Below, piece after piece: positions 1,355-39,362 of a stretch of 39,745 nucleotides of DNA; position 1 is the stretch's first letter, and the number at the start of each line of letters is the position of its first letter. The notes under the pieces were generated by a model. The model was not told where the DNA came from, made no database searches, and saw only the letters and a program-made list of their open reading frames with translations. A program made the position numbers and the translations under genes. The stretch comes from a virus. Location of the stretch: the UHGV virus genome UHGV-0127686, one strand, 5' to 3'.

Positions 1355-1594
1355 ATGACCCAATCCGTGTTGCTGCCACCGGGGCCTTTCACCCGGAGAC
1401 AAGCGCAAGCGGTCACTACCACGTACAGCAATATCACACTCGAAGACGACCAGGGCAGTCACTTCCGTCTGGTGGTTCGTGATACTGAAGGCCGGATGGT
1501 CTGGCGGGCATGGAACTTTGAGCCGGATGCCGGTGAAGGTCTTAACCGCTATATCCGCACCTCAGGCATCCGTACAGACACGGCTACCCGCTGA
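1355..1594 (+). CDS. DUF905-family small protein (YkfF/YpjJ-like)
   Basis: 79-aa product from the internal ATG of track ORF 1142..1594, preceded by aggag RBS; sequence recalled as the DUF905 family of CP4-type islands. Confidence 0.55.
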
Positions 1595-1691
1595 TCGCGA
1601 AGCATTTACCCGCATTCACCTCCCCGAACACACTTTATATCCCCATACGCCAGCCATCGCCGCTGGCGTTTTTATTGACGGAGACATACCC

Positions 1692-2150
1692 ATGATAACA
1701 CAGACGCAGCACGACCTCGCACCCGCTAACCAACCCGAATTTGAACTGACCGTCACGCCGGTCCCCGATGAACAGCGTATCGATTTCTGGCCACAGTACT
1801 TTGGCGCTATCCCGCAGTGGCTACTCCTGGAGCCGCATATCTTCGCCTGGATGGACCGCTTCTGTGAGGGCTACAGCGGTGGTATCTGGTCGTTCTACAC
1901 CCTCAGCAATGGCGGCGCATTTATGTCCCCCGAGCCTGACAACGATGAGACATGGCGTCTGTTTAACTGCCTGAACGGTAACGATGCCCAAATGAGTGCA
2001 GAAGCAGCAGGTATTGCTGTCTGCCTGATTGCGTATAGCCACCATGCCTGCCGTACAGAATGTGACGCGATGACCGCACACTATTACCGCCTGCGGGAGT
2101 ATGCCATGCAACATCCAGAGGCTCACGCCATTCTGCGTATTATCGACTGA
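1692..2150 (+). CDS. antirestriction protein, KlcA/ArdB family (YafX/YfjX-like)
   Basis: 152-aa product from internal ATG at 1692; motifs FWPQYFG, WSFYTLSNGGAFM and AHYYRLREYA match the recalled K-12 antirestriction paralogues. Confidence 0.75.
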   Translation: MITQTQHDLAPANQPEFELTVTPVPDEQRIDFWPQYFGAIPQWLLLEPHIFAWMDRFCEGYSGGIWSFYTLSNGGAFMSPEPDNDETWRLFNCLNGNDAQMSAEAAGIAVCLIAYSHHACRTECDAMTAHYYRLREYAMQHPEAHAILRIID

Positions 2151-2165
2151 CCGAAGGAGCAACAG

Positions 2166-2642
2166 ATGAAACAGCTTTCCTTTTTACCCGGCGAGATGAC
2201 GCCACAGGACCGGCGTCTCATTCAGCGGGCGCTCAGGGCTCTGGACCGCCACCTGCATGAGCCCGGCGTAGCCTTCACCTCTACCCACGCCGTACGTGAA
2301 TGGCTGCGACTGCATATGGCCGCGCTTGAGCGGGAAGAGTTCCGGGTGTTGTATCTGGACAACCAGAATCAGTTGATTGCCCATGAAACGCTCTTCACCG
2401 GCACGATTAACCGCACCGAGGTGCATCCCCGGGAGGTGGTCAAACGTGCTCTGCACTTCAACGCGGCGGCGGTGATACTCGCGCATAACCATCCTTCCGG
2501 CGAGACGACACCTAGCCAGGCCGACAAAACCCTCACGCAGCGACTGGTTCAGGTGCTTCAGCTGGTGGATATCCGTGTCCCTGACCATCTGATTGTCGGT
2601 GGCAGGCAAATCTATTCGTTCGCAGAACACGGTCTGCTTTGA
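2166..2642 (+). CDS. RadC-like JAB-domain protein (YkfG/YeeS family)
   Basis: 158 aa; JAB/MPN signature AHNHPSGETTPSQAD; RBS ggagc upstream. Confidence 0.8.
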   Translation: MKQLSFLPGEMTPQDRRLIQRALRALDRHLHEPGVAFTSTHAVREWLRLHMAALEREEFRVLYLDNQNQLIAHETLFTGTINRTEVHPREVVKRALHFNAAAVILAHNHPSGETTPSQADKTLTQRLVQVLQLVDIRVPDHLIVGGRQIYSFAEHGLL

Positions 2643-2650
2643 GGTATTAC

Positions 2651-2872
2651 ATGAAAATTATCAGTAAACGCAGGGCAATGACGATATACCGCCAGCATCC
2701 TGAGTCCCGAATCTTTCGCTACTGCACCGGCAAATACCAGTGGCACGGTAGCGTCTGTCATTACACCGGCAGGGACGTTCCGGATATCGCCGGAGTCCTC
2801 GCGGTATACGCCGAACGCCGCCAGGACCGCAATGGGCCCTATACCTGCCTGATGAGCATCACCCTGAACTGA
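2651..2872 (+). CDS. DUF987 small protein (YkfH/YeeT family)
   Basis: 73-aa product from internal ATG; FRYCTGKYQWHGS and GVLAVYAERRQD resemble the YeeT family. Confidence 0.55.
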   Translation: MKIISKRRAMTIYRQHPESRIFRYCTGKYQWHGSVCHYTGRDVPDIAGVLAVYAERRQDRNGPYTCLMSITLN

Positions 2873-2890
2873 CAATAGTGGAGAACTGTA

Positions 2891-3570
<680 letters not shown>

Positions 3571-3635
3571 ACATTGCGTACAACCTTCCCGATTTACATT
3601 TCTGAACTTCCTCCCTTGTTTACCTATTGCGTAAT

Positions 3636-3671
3636 GCGCCTGCTACTACCCGGCAGGCGCGTTATCTTTTT
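3636..3671 (+). terminator. rho-independent terminator after the toxin gene
   Basis: 8-bp GC-rich stem gcgcctgc/gcaggcgc with 9-nt loop followed by gttatcttttt. Confidence 0.6.
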
Positions 3672-3951
3672 ACGGACAAACAATCATGCAACCAGAAGTT
3701 GAAGTATTAACCGATCATAATGAGCTAATTTGTTCGAGCTTTATTGAACACATTGCCAACACATTAAATTTAGGAGTGGTGTACAACTAAACCTGCAGCC
3801 AAGGATGTATAGTGAGCGAAGCCCTATCAGGCCTTTTTGGTCAGTAGATAAGATTGATCTTCGTTGATAGAATTTACTTACACCAGCTGTTACATTAAGA
3901 TAATTTTTTGGTGGGAGAATGATAAGAACTTACGTAACAATTTGATTTTAA

Positions 3952-3997
3952 TGGTGCCGATAATAGGAGTCGAACCTACGACCTTCGCATTACGAAT
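3952..3997 (-). repeat. 46-nt partial tRNA-Thr 3' end (att core / element junction)
   Basis: Reverse complement reads attcgtaatgcgaaggtcgtaggttcgactcctattatcggcacca, the recalled 3' part of thrW through CCA; the sequence upstream of it is not tRNA-like, so it is a partial copy. Confidence 0.75.
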
Positions 3998-4437
3998 TAT
4001 AAGAATCCGCTTCTAATTCAAAGTATTATCCCATCAACACTGCGCTCACACGTCCCACCACATCAAAACATGTAAAGCCTTGCAAGCCATTGCGAGGCCT
4101 TATGTGTCTCAGTTTTGTCCCACCTTGTATTACGACTTGCATAGCCAATGAAGATAAACGTGACGACAAACGGCGCAGCAGTCTTCTTTTCCTTCATACT
4201 TTCCCCACCCAGCATGCATACCTTTATGCCATAACTGAAGTTTATGTCTGTTATGAGCGAGGAACGGACATTACTAACAGCATTCTGTGTGAATCACCAG
4301 GGAGCAGGTCAGCGCCACTACTCTATATAATCGCTAACGATGACAAGTATAATTATATAAGTCTTTGCCCTTAGCTTTTGGATAAAATTGTTGAAGTTTC
4401 ACGAAAATAATGATAAACAAAAAAAGTAGCAATAATA

Positions 4438-5070
4438 ATGGATTTAATTATGGAATGGAGATTTTTAGGTTCTCTATCAGAGGCCAGGAAATCTGGCTGT
4501 AGCGGAGTTTATCTTATTGTCCATAAAGGACTTTTCAGTCGTGTGGTTTACGTTGGGGTAAGTTGTAATGTAGGTAGAAGGATAACCGAACATTACGACG
4601 GTTATCTTAGAGGAAATCGAACAATTTACGACGCTGGTCACGACGAAGACGTTTATCGCTTCATGTCAGCTTATAAAATTCATAACCACACAAAATACTA
4701 TCAAGCCTTGGCGAATGATTATAAGATATGGGCATCTACCACAATGTATTCTGATTTGCCGAAAAACATGCTAGCAAAAAGCCAAACCTTTGATACTGAT
4801 TGGCAGAGCATTGCATTAGAAAAATATATTCCTCAACTGGTAGTATGGGCCCTTCCAATGGCAAAGTACTGTTATTCAAATGCAAGCAGGATTGAAAGTG
4901 TAATCCAATCAAAGCTCATTAAATCTTTTGATTTGAGAGGTTTTTTTAATATAAAGCAATTAAGCATATTGGGTAAAATTGAATATCCCTATATGGAAAA
5001 GGTCAAAGTTTTCATTATTAACACACCTGATTTAGACCCGGCATCCCAGCTTATTTTTAGCAATCTATAA
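4438..5070 (+). CDS. GIY-YIG-like nuclease-domain protein (cargo)
   Basis: N-terminus GVYLIVHKGLFSRVVYVGVSCNVGRRITEH fits the GIY-x(10)-YVG...R...E pattern; AT-rich; weak RBS, start uncertain. Confidence 0.5.
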   Translation: MDLIMEWRFLGSLSEARKSGCSGVYLIVHKGLFSRVVYVGVSCNVGRRITEHYDGYLRGNRTIYDAGHDEDVYRFMSAYKIHNHTKYYQALANDYKIWASTTMYSDLPKNMLAKSQTFDTDWQSIALEKYIPQLVVWALPMAKYCYSNASRIESVIQSKLIKSFDLRGFFNIKQLSILGKIEYPYMEKVKVFIINTPDLDPASQLIFSNL

Positions 5071-5571
5071 CAAAAAAACTGATAACAACTTCTGTAAAGA
5101 GTTCCGTTCACAATTTAAAAGCGAGATTTTTCAGAGGGAAAGTGAAACTCAGAGAAAGCGAACTATTAGGGAGCATAAGGTATCTCTTTATGAAAATTAT
5201 GGCAAGCCTTGGACTTTAAAGGAAATGGAAAAACTTAGAGTCATGCTTGTCGATTTTGATTTGTCCCCGACAGAAATATCTGAGTATCTAGGAAGAGAGC
5301 CGCGCTCTATATCTAAAAAAATAAGCGAAAATGATAAAGTTACTAATTATAAATGGCGAGAGAGCGTCGGCTGGTTGTGACGTTACGTTTTGATTGAAAT
5401 AACCCCCATTTTGCAAAGTCCGCTCTTGGCACATAGCAGACCAGAGACACTGGCGTAAAGCCATGGAGGATCGGTGGGAGGAGGTAAAAATCCTCTCATG
5501 CAAAAAATACGCAAAATCGATAACAGTTGGAAATCATTCAATACTCGCACTATCGAAAGTTCACCAGCCAG

Positions 5572-5611
5572 TCGTAGCACGTTCTTGCATACGACGTGGC
5601 TACGGGTTTCG
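5572..5611. repeat. imperfect hairpin repeat, copy A
   Basis: cgtagcacgttcttgcatacgacgtggctacgggtttc; shares about 35 of 40 positions with the copy at 6593-6632. Confidence 0.55.
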
Positions 5612-5700
5612 AGACCGACTCGATCATCAAACGAAACATAAAATTAGCTCACATTATGAGGAAAGGTATCTTTTTGCGCTATGTAAATTCAAAGGGTTAG

Positions 5701-6570
<870 letters not shown>

Positions 6571-6592
6571 GTCTTTAAGTGATAAGCATAAA

Positions 6593-6632
6593 CCGCAGCA
6601 CGATCTTCTTGCATACGACGTGCTACGGTTTC
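6593..6632. repeat. imperfect hairpin repeat, copy B
   Basis: gcagcacgatcttcttgcatacgacgtgctacggtttc, abutting the pin stop codon; agcacg/cgtgct stem around a conserved ttcttgcatacga loop. Confidence 0.55.
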
Positions 6633-7185
6633 ATTTATCTCCGACCGGAAACTTCTTATACAGTGTCGATATACCAACATCATAGATGATCGCCACCTTC
6701 TGGCGAGGAACGCCTGATGCAATTAATCGTCCGGCCTGCTCCCATTGTTCTGGTGTAAGTTTGGGGCGACGTCCACCAATTCGTCCCTGTGCGCGAGCTG
6801 CTTCCAGTCCAGCTTTTGTTCGTTCAACAATCAGTTCACGCTCCATTTCAGCCAGGGCACCCATCACATGAAAGAAAAAGCGCCCCATTGGGGTACTGGT
6901 ATCAATTGAATCCGTCAGACTACGAAAGTTGATGCCTCGTTCGCGCAACTCCTCCACCAGCACGACAAGATGCCGCATACTGCGTCCCAGTCGGTCCAGT
7001 TTCCAGACCACCAGCGTGTCACCTGCCGATAATGTCCTGAGCAGCTTTTTCAGTCCTGGTCTGTCGGACTTTGTACCGCTTATCTTGTCTTCAAAAATCA
7101 GTTCACATCCTACACAGTTCAACGCATTACGTTGTAGATCGGTGTTCTGGTCATTTGTTGATACGCGTACATAGCCAATAAGCAT
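6631..7185 (-). CDS. pin: serine DNA invertase, Pin/Gin/Hin family
   Basis: 184-aa product from internal ATG; [22 protein letters not shown] with catalytic Ser, [16 protein letters not shown]-terminal HTH; very close to e14 Pin as recalled. Confidence 0.92.
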
Positions 7186-7239
7186 GGTGGATCTCCCTGA
7201 CAAAAGCAGGAATGATGCCATTTGCTCGTTATTTCTGCA

Positions 7240-7265
7240 TTTTCATAAACGTTGGTTTGGGAGAA
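7240..7265. repeat. invertase crossover site, left
   Basis: ttttcataaacgTTggtttgggagaa, 26 bp; right half-site identical to the reverse complement of the site at 9131-9156. Confidence 0.8.
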
Positions 7266-7625
7266 GCGGCGAAACGAAATGTGGGAACAGGGGAAAATCA
7301 GATACCGGACATGGCCTCTTTTGCCAGTGGTGATGGATGGATGAAATTACCCAACGGGAAAATCCTGCAATATGGTCGTGGGCGTGTGTCTCCTACGCTT
7401 GCGAGTCAGACACTACGGGTAGAATTTAATATACCTTTCCCTAAAAAAGCTGATATTGCCTTGCTTTCACATTCTGGTGATGGTGGTTCAACTGCCGGGA
7501 GTGGTCGTGGTTTTATGATGACAACTGAAGAGCCAGGGTTAACAGGGTTTTATTCTGCCTTTAGAACAACCTCGACAAGTCCAACTGTTACCATGAATTA
7601 CTGTTGGTGGGCTGTTGGCGAGTAA
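7251..7625 (+). CDS. alternative tail-fibre C-terminal variable segment (startless, fused to the constant part after inversion)
   Basis: Frame is open from inside the left site ([11 protein letters not shown]...) and matches the frame of the fibre constant part across the right site (ENLGLGE); no own start codon needed. Confidence 0.65.
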
Positions 7626-7645: not shown

Positions 7646-8089
7646 ATGAACAAATATGTTTATAGTGCCAGACATAATGCTTTTTTCCCTGTGGATATGA
7701 TTGATAAATATAAATCAGAGGGATGGGATTTATCAGATGTGAAAGAAGTGAATCAAAATATTATCAGTGAGTTTATGGCTGAACCGCCACAAGGAAAAGT
7801 CCGTATTGCCGGAGATGATGCGCTGCCTGCGTGGGCTGATATTCCTCCACCCACGCATGAAGAGCTTATTGAAATTACTGAATCAGAAAGACAGCTACTA
7901 ATTAACCAGGCCAACGAATACATGAACAGTAAACAATGGCCCGGTAAAGCCGCTATTGGTCGTCTGAAAGGTGACGAACTGGCGCAATATAATTTGTGGC
8001 TGGATTATCTGGACGCACTGGAACTGGTTGATACTTCCGGTGCGCCAGATATTGAATGGCCTACGCCTCCGGCAGTTCAGGCCAGATGA
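7646..8089 (+). CDS. tail fibre assembly protein (alternate orientation)
   Basis: From ATG at 7646 with RBS agggtga; C-terminal LWLDYLDALELVDTSGAPDIEWPTPP is the typical Tfa C-terminus. Confidence 0.8.
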   Translation: MNKYVYSARHNAFFPVDMIDKYKSEGWDLSDVKEVNQNIISEFMAEPPQGKVRIAGDDALPAWADIPPPTHEELIEITESERQLLINQANEYMNSKQWPGKAAIGRLKGDELAQYNLWLDYLDALELVDTSGAPDIEWPTPPAVQAR

Positions 8090-8663
8090 CATCCGGCGCG
8101 GTGCTGGTATCTGTTGCCGTCAACGCGTCAATATAATCCAGCGCAGCGTTAAGCCGGGTGGTTTCTGCCTGCGTCAGCTTCCGCCCGGCCTGCAATTTCA
8201 ACTGAATCAGACTAATGGAAACCATTGCAGCATCAATCAGTGACTGACGCTGTGCTTCTGCCGCGTCTACTGCGGCGCTATGCTGTGCCTCGGTATCTGT
8301 CACCCATTTCTCACCATCCCATTTATCGTATGGAGATAAAGGGGCGATAGTGGTTGTATTTTCAGGGTAATCACCCGGAGATGTGATTTCTTTTGATTCT
8401 CCTGTTTCGGTGCTATAGAGGATTTCACCGCGATGGTCTGGCACATATTCCCATGAATTAAAATCTGCAGAACGGCGGATAACATAACCCTCCCTATGTA
8501 TACCAGGTGCATCCAGGCAGGAATATGCCGGGATACCAACACCAACGGCAAGATATTCACTTGAAGTGGAAATATATTCCCGAGTTTCACCATCATAGTT
8601 ATAAACAGTAATATCCCCTGCCTTCGTAGCAATAAACTCGCTATTTAATACAGCGTTATCCAT
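8061..8663 (-). CDS. tail fibre assembly protein (expressed orientation)
   Basis: C-terminal NAALDYIDALTATDTSTAPDVIWPELP Tfa motif; start overlaps the fibre stop (TAATG). Confidence 0.85.
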   Translation of the reverse strand: MDNAVLNSEFIATKAGDITVYNYDGETREYISTSSEYLAVGVGIPAYSCLDAPGIHREGYVIRRSADFNSWEYVPDHRGEILYSTETGESKEITSPGDYPENTTTIAPLSPYDKWDGEKWVTDTEAQHSAAVDAAEAQRQSLIDAAMVSISLIQLKLQAGRKLTQAETTRLNAALDYIDALTATDTSTAPDVIWPELPEA

Positions 8664-9499
8664 TATGCAGCCCTCACAATGTAGTTAAATGCAACGTTCA
8701 CCGGGCGAGTTTCATTGGCGGTATTTGCCACCCTTGACATATCGAAATCAAATGTTGTGACACCATGCCCTCCACTACCTACGCCTGTAACCGCTGTTAA
8801 TCCAGTAGTCAGATAGTTATTACCGTTATGACGAAATGGACCACTGGTAACTAAATCTTTAAAAAGCTGAATTTTCCCTATTGAACCAGTGACGTTTTGC
8901 ATTGCATGCTCCTGTGAAGCCAATAGAATCCTTCCGGGGTCAATGCCTCTCCCGTCATCCCAGCCACGAATAAACTCACCGCGTAAATCAGGCAATTTAT
9001 TTGTCGGGTAAGCCTTTGCCAGTTCCGGGTATTCTTCAGCAGAAAATGCCGCACCGTTGCATTTCAGCCAGCCTGTTGGCGGAGTGGCGGAAGGCCACGG
9101 AACAGGCACACCAACGGGTAATGCCGAACCTTCTCCCAAACCAAGGTTTTCGAGAGCTGTTTTCACCGTGCCATCCGATTTGATATCGCCAAACGGATTC
9201 TTGCGGCTCAGGTATTCAACAGCAAACCCCGATCCCAGCAATTCAACAAAACCGGGCAGATCACCATTATCAAGCACATCCCGTTGCGTTTTGTCACTTA
9301 CAAACTGGGCCAGAGCTGCAGCAATAAAGCTGGCCTGCCGAATAACCTTATTGACTTGCGCACTGGATGCTTTCCCTGCTGTAAATCCGGATAAAAGCGC
9401 AGGCAACGCTTCCCATTCCTCCTGCGACATAACATTGGCATTTCGATCCGTTGCAAACGCTTTAAAGTCATTTTTCGCCATCAGAGTAATACTCCCCAT
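8663..9499 (-). CDS. tail fibre protein (constant N-terminus plus variable C-terminus with collar-type domain)
   Basis: 278 aa; crossover site lies inside the gene at the LENLGLGEG codons; C-terminal [18 protein letters not shown]...[15 protein letters not shown] is the phage tail-collar motif. Confidence 0.8.
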
Positions 9500-30055: not shown

Positions 30056-30940
30056 TTAAATCCCCAAGAGAGGCTTAAAGTCATTTAGCTTCTCTGCTTT
30101 AATAACAAATCCGAGATTCATTGTAATTTCAGAACGCACAACTGGTGTAGCGACTGTTGGTACGTCAATAATTTCAATATTCCCGCTAACATTCGTTACT
30201 GGCCCTGCATACAACAACCCAAGGAAAATTAATCTCTCCCCCATAGCAATACCATTATTAGTAGCATATGAGCCTTGGTTCATTATATAAACGGGAGAAC
30301 CGCTAGAACCACCGAAACAAGCCATATCAATGAGGAATTCAGGCTTACCCTTCCAGTTTTCCATAGGTGATGATGCTGTGATGCCTTTCCTGGTAACAGG
30401 CCTATTGTTTACAGAATCCCATAATCCATTTGGATATCCTGTCATGTAAACATCTTCGACAGGAGTAATGTAATTGTTACCACGCATCTGACGATCTGTG
30501 AAAAAGAAGAGTTCTGGGCTAATGCCACTTTTCTCCATCTCATTCAGCAATCCAGCGATAGGCAATATGCATATATCAACATTATCATCAGGGTGCATAA
30601 TGAACGCATTTGCCCCCTCTGAAATTGTTAGGTTATAAAATTTTATCTCAGGATTTGCGCTGTCGGTAATGTTTAGACGTAGTCTAACTTCTGTTGCCCC
30701 GTTAACAACATGCTTATTAGTTACCAAGAGTGGAACAATATCTTCACCACCTTCCATAACAAAGCAAAACCAGAAAGCAGTTCCTACCGAGGTTCCCTCT
30801 GGAGTATCACTTTCAACTCTAAGTGTAGACTTATAAATATCTTGACTGACAGACATATCCGTAACTCCCATGTTTAAATAGGGGATAAATATAGCATCAA
30901 TCACATAAGAATTATCTGATCTGTTCGATGTATTGACCAA
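30056..30940 (-). CDS. trypsin-like (S1/chymotrypsin-fold) serine peptidase, cytoplasmic
   Basis: Catalytic triad motifs in order: LVTNKHVV (His), DICIL (Asp), GGSSGSPV (Ser); no signal peptide; TTG start at 30940 or ATG at 30871; GC-rich hairpin plus T-run downstream. Confidence 0.7.
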   Translation of the reverse strand: MVNTSNRSDNSYVIDAIFIPYLNMGVTDMSVSQDIYKSTLRVESDTPEGTSVGTAFWFCFVMEGGEDIVPLLVTNKHVVNGATEVRLRLNITDSANPEIKFYNLTISEGANAFIMHPDDNVDICILPIAGLLNEMEKSGISPELFFFTDRQMRGNNYITPVEDVYMTGYPNGLWDSVNNRPVTRKGITASSPMENWKGKPEFLIDMACFGGSSGSPVYIMNQGSYATNNGIAMGERLIFLGLLYAGPVTNVSGNIEIIDVPTVATPVVRSEITMNLGFVIKAEKLNDFKPLLGI

Positions 30941-32338: not shown

Positions 32339-32414
32339 TGGTGCTGGTTAACGGACTTGAACCGCTACCCATTCGCTTACAAGGCGACCGCTCTACCATT
32401 GGAGCTAAACCAGC
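32339..32414 (-). tRNA. tRNA-Thr (anticodon UGU)
   Basis: 76-nt cloverleaf folded by hand: 7-bp acceptor, D-loop with GG, anticodon loop cUUGUaa, T-loop TTCAAGT, 3' CCA; one non-WC pair at 27-43. Confidence 0.65.
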
Positions 32415-32419
32415 ATATT

Positions 32420-32495
32420 TGGCGGGACAGCGTGGACTCGAACCACGATAAGAAGGTTAACAGCCTTCCGTAATGACCTTTATACGACTGACCCA
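32420..32495 (-). tRNA. tRNA-like sequence, Asn-type anticodon GUU (possibly degenerate)
   Basis: Perfect anticodon arm (gaagg/cUGUUaa/ccttc), T-arm GGTTCGAGTCC and CCA end, but acceptor stem has a T-T mismatch and the D-arm is irregular. Confidence 0.4.
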
Positions 32496-38456: not shown

Positions 38457-39362
38457 ATGTCGATTAACAGCAATAGCGAATCCCTGCATCAAATGCAGCT
38501 TTTCCCTGTAGTAGAGGTTGTTTCTGATGATATTCCTATGGGCGTTCTCAATGATGGAACTCCTTACCTAACTCTCTACGGTCTCGCAAAGTTATGCGGC
38601 ATTGATGACACGCCACTGAGGGTGTTCACATCAAACTGGAACACAGAGAAAAACAAACCCAGAGGTCAAAAAGTAGCTGCGTATTTAGCTGAGAAAGGGT
38701 TTCATAACGTCGAAAAGCTATACACTCGCGTTTTAAATAGCTCAAACGTGGAAACTCATGCTTATCCTGACTATGTTTGCATGGCTATCCTCCGTTACTA
38801 CGCTCTAGATGCCACCAATTTTGATAGGTCAGTCGCAATAGGTAATTTTGTTCGCTTGGCTGAGTACACGCTTAAGCGAATGATTTATGAAAAGTCAAAT
38901 TACAACCCAAATGCTTCAATAGATATCTCATTCGAGAACTATAGAGCAAGGATTAAGCTAAACGATCAGATACCGACAACTCATTTTGCAGTATTCAGAG
39001 AGATAGCTGACATTGCCATGAACCTGATCGGAGGAGGATTCCCAATGGATGACACCACATCTTTGGATGGAAGTGTTGGAATTCACTGGGGAAAGTATTG
39101 GACAGCTAATGGGCTATCTGAGAAATTCGGGGAAAGGGTGCAGTACCCACATTTATTCCCCGAAAATTACAGGCAGTCAGCTGCAAATAAGCATATAACA
39201 GCTTGGATTTATCCTATTGAGGCACTTGGCGTGTTCAGAAAATGGCTACACGATAATTACGCAATGGAAAAACTGCCAAATTACCTTGGGAACAAAAAGA
39301 TTAGTAACGCCTCCGAGCTATTAGAGTCGATAAAAAAACCAGCACTCCCAAATAAGCATTGA
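38457..39362 (+). CDS. hypothetical 301-aa protein in the rexA/rexB position
   Basis: ATG at 38457 with aaggaaa RBS; AT-rich; no resemblance to lambda RexA or RexB as recalled; N-terminal third loosely resembles a Bro-N/KilA-N-type domain (tentative). Confidence 0.8.
   Translation: MSINSNSESLHQMQLFPVVEVVSDDIPMGVLNDGTPYLTLYGLAKLCGIDDTPLRVFTSNWNTEKNKPRGQKVAAYLAEKGFHNVEKLYTRVLNSSNVETHAYPDYVCMAILRYYALDATNFDRSVAIGNFVRLAEYTLKRMIYEKSNYNPNASIDISFENYRARIKLNDQIPTTHFAVFREIADIAMNLIGGGFPMDDTTSLDGSVGIHWGKYWTANGLSEKFGERVQYPHLFPENYRQSAANKHITAWIYPIEALGVFRKWLHDNYAMEKLPNYLGNKKISNASELLESIKKPALPNKH

Follow-up and report, generated by a model that had tools for sequence, protein, structure and literature searches.

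The open reading frame (ORF) at 4438–5070 of the virus genome UHGV-0127686 (39,745 nt, the whole of which is called the window here) is, if the sequence is taken as it stands, very probably a truncated allele of a gene that joins a GIY-YIG nuclease domain at the N-terminus to a C-terminal helix-turn-helix (HTH) domain. The intact gene belongs to a family that is described in no paper or defence catalogue that we searched, although databases label the family GIY-YIG. For the explanation as a whole, in which the window holds a truncated copy of a single-gene, HTH-guided cargo endonuclease that serves in defence, we put the chances at about even. The features on which the analysis is based are collected in Table 1.

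Table 1. Positions of the nuclease gene, its parts and its neighbours in the window
Feature	Position	Strand	Remarks
thrW 3' end, 46 nt of tRNA-Thr; att repeat	3952–3997	-	Same as nt 31–76 of K-12 thrW, reverse-complemented; island to the left, prophage end to the right from 3998
1.2-kb cassette	4246–5441	+	The gene, flanked by about 190 bp of upstream and about 60 bp of downstream DNA; at least 99% identity in unrelated E. coli contexts
Nuclease ORF	4438–5070	+	ATG start, 210 aa, ends at a TAA made by the frameshift; spans family profile positions 1–207
Start conserved in other genera	M5 (4450)	+
GIY-YIG β-hairpin and first helix	4504–4593	+	Codons 23–52: GVY ... YVG ... R48 ... H52; PF01541 at aa 22–62
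Codon E153 (IESVIQ helix)	4894–4896	+	Invariant in the 29-sequence and distant-relative alignments; helix 146–164
Interdomain slippery stretch, frameshift site	5054–5078	+	T5 at 5054–5058, (TA)2 at 5066–5069, A7 at 5072–5078
Out-of-frame C-terminal remnant	5066–5380	+	104 codons; helical linker and predicted Myb/SANT/GcrA-like three-helix HTH domain
PD-T4-3/CMoRE gene	5746–6570, likely start 5797	+	PADLOC E 3e-140; Pfam LEM-3_GIY-YIG; GWYVY as 'GIYxY' motif; 0.7 kb downstream
pinE invertase	6631–7221		Downstream of PD-T4-3
PDC-S45 candidate	30056–30940	-	294 aa; PADLOC E 8e-101; AT-rich patch, GC 0.39–0.43 at 29–31 kb
BstA, prophage-encoded abortive-infection protein	38457–39362	+	301 aa; PADLOC E 1.3e-105; AT-rich right end of the window

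A frameshift separates the two domains

The first residues of the ORF product are MDLIMEWRFLGSLSEARKSGCSGVYLIVHKGLFSRVVYVGVSCNVGRRITEHYDGY. The closest E. coli relatives of the locus, L001 (from NZ_CP013025) and L002 (from NZ_AP022245), have at the same place a 945-bp coding sequence for a protein of 314 aa (WP_001742131.1), which is annotated as 'hypothetical protein'. Relative to both, the window has a 2-bp deletion in an alignment that is otherwise near-identical over 1,040 nt. One TA of the CTATATAAC tract is missing: all relatives have (TA)3 where the window has (TA)2 at 5066–5069, and the TAA that results occupies 5068–5070. The ORF is regarded as a truncated allele because this stop arises from a 2-bp deletion with respect to the 945-bp gene. 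Translated in the shifted frame, the C-terminal remnant is free of other lesions and its 104 residues are those at 211–314 in the protein of L001; a 51-aa ORF at 5225–5380 is a portion of this remnant.

The deletion was absent from 282 complete E. coli genomes when a probe of 68 nt over the site was used: 0 of the 282 matched at 99% or above, and all had the extra TA. The choice is therefore between a mutation of very recent date and a mistake in assembly. Most likely, function was lost in the window copy only very recently, or the TA dropped out in sequencing. The second of these, in which the strain carries the ordinary intact 314-aa gene and the deletion was introduced by assembly or sequencing, is on balance unlikely but deserves real weight. 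It would agree with the place of the deletion, in a (TA)n tract between T5 and A7, with its occurrence in no other genome, and with the 312 nt downstream, which are free of lesions and encode a protein identical to that of L001. On the other side, the sequence itself bears no sign of an error, a comparable and real frameshift is found in 29 Klebsiella member sequences, and nuclease genes, being costly, commonly show null alleles of recent origin.

The Klebsiella copy in question (P0041, 208 aa, 29 member sequences; locus L023, 8600–8640) has independently gained a T in the T-run; this insertion is 15 nt upstream of where the window lost its TA. A second frameshift is found further on in the same copy, which points to decay rather than switching. 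The interdomain T5-(TA)3-A7 stretch seems to be mutation-prone. Three slippery tracts lie within 25 nt at the interdomain junction (5054–5078), which may be a mutational hotspot or a coincidence.

The N-terminal part is a GIY-YIG domain

A sequence-only reading of the window had reported that the first 40 residues of the product fit the GIY-YIG pattern, with GVY, ten residues, YVG, and then Arg and Glu-His. All of these elements are present, as G23-V24-Y25, Y38-V39-G40, R48 and E51-H52 of the 210-aa product, but the spacing between GVY and YVG is 12 residues and not ten. When the 210-aa product alone was compared with Pfam, PF01541 was matched over aa 22–62 at E 0.0026, with 18.5 bits against a cutoff of 22.6. 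Weak matches comparable to this one were obtained with PHROG 19235, TIGR01453, PDC-S14 and UzuA. Taken by themselves, such single-sequence profile matches are only suggestive of a GIY-YIG motif.

The intact 314-aa protein has 72 homologues at E ≤ 1e-3, which are 40–100% identical to it and nearly all 308–317 aa long; many of them already bear the NCBI name 'GIY-YIG nuclease family protein'. They come from Escherichia, Salmonella, Klebsiella, Pantoea, Leclercia, Kosakonia, Pectobacterium, Serratia, Brenneria and Yersinia, and also from Aeromonas, Plesiomonas, Vibrio, Photobacterium, Pseudoalteromonas, Thalassotalea and Undibacterium. PF01541 was matched by 29 of 29 family members (best E 7e-6). 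In the alignment of 29 sequences, the invariant positions of the first 210 residues include, among others, Y25, Y38, V39, G40, R48, H52, E153 and N171. The first six of these are also invariant or at least 90% conserved in the alignment of the wider superfamily. The spacing G40-x7-R48-x3-H52 is equal to that of G19, R27 and H31 in I-TevI. N171, the candidate for the Asn that GIY-YIG nucleases conserve behind the Glu helix, is invariant in the close family and replaced in distant relatives; it lies in a poorly modelled loop, with pLDDT below 50 at 171–177.

AlphaFold2, run at full length on the family alignment, gave a confident model (pLDDT 91.4, pTM 0.82). In the model, a β-hairpin at 23–42 (strands 23–30 and 34–42) is followed by a helix at 45–58, an insert at 59–119, a helix at 120–133, a strand at 134–140 and a helix at 146–164. 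GVY and YVG sit on the two strands of the hairpin, and R48 and H52 on the helix after it. In a fold comparison, the N-terminal domain of AtGRXS16 scored 7.9, UvrC 6.6, T4 endonuclease II 6.2, R.Eco29kI 6.1 and I-TevI 6.0, with PD-T4-3, SLX1 and Hpy188I lower in the same list. Fold comparison and profile matches together therefore make the GIY-YIG assignment well supported, and the earlier placement of the N-terminus in this superfamily was right. When the profile of the family alignment was searched against PDB sequences, only chance antibody matches and a marginal Myb match were returned, and so the link of the family to solved structures comes from the fold comparison. Among the viral structures of BFVD no match was significant; the weak best full-length ones included group I intron endonucleases (E 0.02).

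The one residue that changes its role is the catalytic glutamate. E51, which belongs to the Glu-His of the motif and had been taken as catalytic, is replaced in this role by E153 on the later helix: by analogy with GIY-YIG topology, E153 is the probable metal-binding catalytic Glu.

The lost C-terminal part is predicted to bind DNA

Beyond the nuclease part, the model has a long helix at 228–251 and then three short helices within 261–302. The last 60 or so residues of the intact C-terminus are predicted to fold into a conserved HTH of the Myb/SANT-like kind; the fold is that of a three-helix DNA-binding module, to which the sequence points weakly. Eight positions are invariant here in the alignment of 29 sequences (W259, E265, L267, R268, F274, R287, I296 and W307), and Myb_DNA-bind_6 was matched by 6 of 29 members. 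Pfam searches with the isolated C-terminal domains gave no match to GcrA, and their Myb and HTH matches were below threshold. The likeness to GcrA is thus one of structure. Compared with known three-helix domains of the GcrA, Myb and SANT types, that of the family is fused to a nuclease. GcrA prefers methylated sites. A reader that depends on DNA modification, or that is specific for phage sequence, is a lead at which the GcrA-like fold of the model, and nothing else, would hint.

Short relatives end where the window product ends

When 1.84 billion representative proteins were searched exhaustively with HMMER, just 141 matched at E ≤ 1e-3. Besides two-domain proteins of about 300 aa, these include dozens of distant relatives (P0090–P0124, 199–235 aa) that match profile positions 1–207 only. 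Y38, G40 and E153 are retained in the short proteins, and so, for the most part, are Y25, R48 and H52; N171 is lost. The end of one of them, P0100 (210 aa), is at the same aligned position as that of the window product, and thus the truncation falls on a natural domain boundary. Modelled alone, the 210-aa product also has a confident predicted fold (pLDDT 87.8). The fragment is therefore predicted to fold, and it may keep some untargeted activity.

The natural short relatives, the fold of the product alone and the independent Klebsiella frameshift, which likewise spares the nuclease domain, could be taken to mean that the 210-aa product is functional in itself, as a stand-alone nuclease domain, and that the slippery tract toggles between targeted and untargeted forms. 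We consider this improbable. The HTH is strongly conserved within the close family, in which identity is 40–100%, down to its eight invariant residues; the deletion is unique when set against 282 E. coli copies; the second Klebsiella frameshift looks like decay; and T5, (TA)3 and A7 are short for phase-variable tracts. We infer instead that the window copy is inactive or untargeted.

The gene occupies a swappable slot at the thrW end of a prophage

Positions 1398–3997 of the window are 99.8% identical to the end of the K-12 element CP4-6 (ykfF to ykfI), and the match stops at 3997, which is also the last position of the thrW fragment; in this fragment Rfam recognizes the T-arm and acceptor half only. 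Since identity to K-12 ends at this point, the prophage is inserted in thrW, and the nuclease gene begins 440 bp inside it. The att-proximal accessory position that had been proposed from the sequence is thereby borne out. The island adjoins the prophage at the 46-nt 3' fragment of thrW, and so two elements lie in tandem at this tRNA gene. The genes of the CP4-6-like island end (1398–3997) are RadC-like, DUF987, and a YafW/YkfI-type antitoxin and toxin. The gene is AT-rich relative to the phage backbone, again as proposed: the GC content of 4501–5000 is 0.36, as against 0.50–0.58 over the greater part of the prophage backbone and of the island beside it.

Downstream of the nuclease gene, the annotation of RefSeq relatives (L001, L002 and L020–L022) marks a scrap of a capsid gene. 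The next gene downstream is PD-T4-3, and therefore two unrelated GIY-YIG nucleases stand side by side. PD-T4-3 has been characterized as CMoRE, a type IV restriction enzyme that cuts DNA containing 5hmC and glucosyl-5hmC (PMC12923530). An origin of the nuclease gene as a duplicate of PD-T4-3 was ruled out, as BLASTP gave E 7.9 and there is no sequence similarity. A 50-aa ORF on the minus strand (4063–4215), whose product contains the hydrophobic stretch KKTAAPFVVTFIFIGYAS, falls within the part that is common to all variants of this prophage end; it had no PADLOC match.

Prophage relatives that lack the gene share only 3934–4268 and 5410–7297 with the window. In these relatives (L020, L021 and L022), the slot in between is filled by flxA with a small ORF, by a pair of unknown ORFs of 305 and 167 aa, or by the gene of a 'GTP pyrophosphokinase' of 424 aa, which may be a RelA/SpoT-type toxin if its annotated name is a guide. 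The thrW-proximal end of this type of prophage thus appears to be a slot into which defence cargo is swapped, always beside PD-T4-3/CMoRE; the cargo seen in it is the GIY-YIG/HTH gene, flxA, the RelA/SpoT-like gene, or unknown genes.

The same 1.2 kb occurs in unrelated contexts

By blastn, a CP4-like island (L008) covers 4246–5441 of the window and a plasmid (L009) covers 4254–5424. Around the edges of the cassette (3900–5800) we found no terminal inverted or direct repeats and no target duplication, and promoter and terminator scans gave results no better than those of shuffles.

The gene is patchy in E. coli, in which 289 of 5,426 genomes have it. All four sampled copies of the commonest E. 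coli allele were in a CP4-type island, between a type I RM operon with an embedded DarTG and the genes of a YeeP-like GTPase and Ag43. The gene was also found on four plasmids. In Klebsiella, it is at the end of a CP4-like island, between OLD-like TOPRIM/PRTase-CE fragments and ScoMcrA-like HNH genes; in Salmonella, in an integrase/MobA element with TIR genes nearby; and in Brenneria, in an ICE-like region. The Aeromonas copy adjoins AbiH (PADLOC 3e-19) downstream of guaBA, that of Thalassotalea is beside an operon with BrxR and JetD/MksE-like genes (Wadjet-like), and that of Undibacterium lies amid Endonuclease_NS, HNH and RES genes. The Kosakonia and Serratia copies are lone insertions between housekeeping genes, with no integrase. 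In Vibrio parahaemolyticus, the gene is one attC-bounded integron cassette, and the same protein is encoded in four different arrays. One such stretch (L012, 1–15735) has dense attC-like repeats of about 120 nt, at least 13 in number, that separate single small ORFs; the cassette of the homologue is at 8001–8930.

By a qualitative tally, known or candidate defence genes were within about 7 kb of the gene in about 7 of 12 distinct contexts. About 5 of the 12 had no recognized defence gene; these are the copies on the plasmid, in the Brenneria ICE, in Serratia, in Kosakonia and in the integron arrays. No neighbour is conserved across the twelve different contexts, so the protein presumably acts alone, and the absence of an obvious partner, remarked on in the sequence-only reading, extends to all of them. 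As a two-domain nuclease that travels alone among defence hotspots, the protein is a reasonable anti-phage candidate.

From the letters alone, both a homing-type endonuclease and a nuclease effector of a defence function had been suggested. The gene of a selfish, free-standing endonuclease of the homing type would be copied, in the course of repair, into a specific empty site that the enzyme had cut, with no benefit to the host. This would explain how the gene spreads as a bare 1.2-kb unit, why an identical cassette is found in unrelated E. coli contexts, and the lone, integrase-free insertions of Kosakonia and Serratia. The domain layout also fits, since a GIY-YIG domain, a linker and a small HTH are arranged as in I-TevI, and there are the weak matches to the group I intron endonuclease profile TIGR01453 (E 0.029) and to the intron endonucleases of BFVD. 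Still, homing is unlikely. No homologue was found in 50,697 phage records, by tblastn even at E ≤ 1; the gene is not within an intron or intein; and its insertion contexts have no target gene in common. The cassette edges, as noted, are without terminal repeats or a duplicated target, the Vibrio copy is an ordinary attC-bounded integron cassette that is moved by the integron integrase, and the TIGR01453 match reaches 14.4 bits against a cutoff of 56.05. Of the two suggestions, the defence effector would suit the genomic contexts better than homing does, and we retain it as the candidate function.

A housekeeping GIY-YIG protein with no part in conflict with mobile elements is very improbable, whether it be a UvrC/Slx1-like repair nuclease or a transcription regulator that combines an HTH with a degenerate nuclease fold. 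The patchy distribution, the AT-rich composition and a location that is mobile or variable DNA in every case argue against the former and the latter alike, and the catalytic residues show full conservation and no degeneration.

Comparison with known GIY-YIG proteins

The family differs from enzymes of the I-TevI/I-BmoI type in having 12 residues between the motifs and an insert of about 60 residues between helices 1 and 2, in a C-terminal domain that is Myb/SANT-like and without a zinc finger, and in the location of the gene, outside introns and phage genomes. The design logic that we propose for the family is that of ICP1 Odn, as far as descriptions can be compared: Odn reportedly fuses a nuclease domain of the homing-endonuclease type to a borrowed, sequence-specific DNA-binding domain. 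Odn is, however, encoded by a phage and has a different DNA-binding domain. Its published description presents it as a chimeric nuclease that provides sequence-specific immunity against a rival mobile element (PMC8263062).

With PD-T4-3/CMoRE, the family shares a single-protein format, in which an N-terminal GIY-YIG domain is followed by a C-terminal DNA-reading domain, as well as its place as prophage cargo in the same hotspot. Unlike PD-T4-3, it does not have the third Tyr of GIYxY (the motif of the window protein is GVYLI), and its C-terminal fold is a different one, a three-helix HTH, where CMoRE has a 5hmC-sensing domain. The PADLOC profile of PD-T4-3 did not match the 210-aa protein, as against 3e-140 for the neighbour. 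Uzume (UzuA), PD-Lambda-1 and PDC-S14 are stand-alone GIY-YIG proteins with a defence or candidate defence role (bioRxiv 10.1101/2024.10.26.620412; PADLOC), and the family protein is like them in standing alone with a GIY-YIG domain. With PADLOC 2.0, we obtained only weak matches limited to the motif (aa 12–64), to PDC-S14 at 2.7e-5 and to UzuA at 1.9e-4; there was no match to PD-Lambda-1, and no curated defence-system model matched beyond the weak PDC-S14 and UzuA hits. In the literature, including a survey of E. coli defence islands, we found no description of this GIY-YIG/HTH family and no experimental report on phage protection by a member, and WP_001742131 is mentioned in no paper.

Proposed function of the intact gene

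The ORF at 4438–5070 is the 5' two-thirds of a single-gene cargo locus of mobile elements. The intact gene encodes an N-terminal GIY-YIG domain (aa ~1–207, with its insert of about 60 residues), a long helical linker and the C-terminal Myb/SANT/GcrA-like HTH. In the mechanism that we propose, the intact protein would be a DNA endonuclease that is positioned by its HTH domain. This domain would dock the enzyme on DNA, by sequence, structure or modification, and the tethered GIY-YIG domain would then nick or cut nearby DNA by means of Y25, Y38, R48, H52 and E153, a division of labour as in enzymes of the I-TevI type. The role of such a protein would be that of a stand-alone nuclease against phages or mobile elements, whose 1.2-kb cassette moves from one defence hotspot to another. 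In the window copy, the loss of one TA from (TA)3 stops translation at residue 210 and leaves, at most, an untargeted nuclease domain.

That the intact protein defends against phages or other mobile DNA has, in our estimate, slightly less than an even chance of being correct. It counts against a defence role that there is no methyltransferase or immunity partner to explain why host DNA is spared. The weak, motif-limited PADLOC matches and the contexts with no recognized defence gene speak against the explanation as a whole, as do the poor conservation of N171 in distant relatives and the sub-threshold Pfam match of the single sequence. More tentatively, the 314-aa family may be an unrecognized single-gene anti-phage or anti-mobile-element system, in which a GcrA/Myb-like reader steers a GIY-YIG nuclease and perhaps recognizes modified DNA or a sequence peculiar to phages. 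Its 1.2-kb cassette would travel among prophage ends, CP4-type islands, plasmids and integron arrays, and in the window allele nature would have supplied a mutant with one domain deleted.

Should the intact protein prove defensive, the known systems would gain a compact nuclease system of one gene, and the window allele would provide a natural control in which the reader domain is deleted. A small, HTH-guided GIY-YIG nuclease could also find practical use as a targetable nicking module. Should it be no more than a selfish nuclease gene in decay, there is nothing out of the ordinary in it.

Other genes of the prophage

The tail-fibre and baseplate genes that follow pinE are like those of the temperate myoviruses vB_EcoM-611R5 and SEN34. 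Between 6631 and 8663, the pinE-type invertase gene is succeeded by ORFs for a tail fibre and a tail-fibre-assembly protein in opposite orientations. Judged by gene order and by the RefSeq annotation of relatives, this is a putative invertible host-range segment of the e14/Mu type.

Two further PADLOC matches, to BstA and to PDC-S45, are listed in Table 1. The PDC-S45 ORF looks like another cargo gene within the prophage; it has weak similarity to RT-protease and LmuA protease regions. On the minus strand, at 32339–32494, the prophage also carries two phage-borne tRNA genes, for tRNA-Thr(TGT) and tRNA-Asn(GTT).
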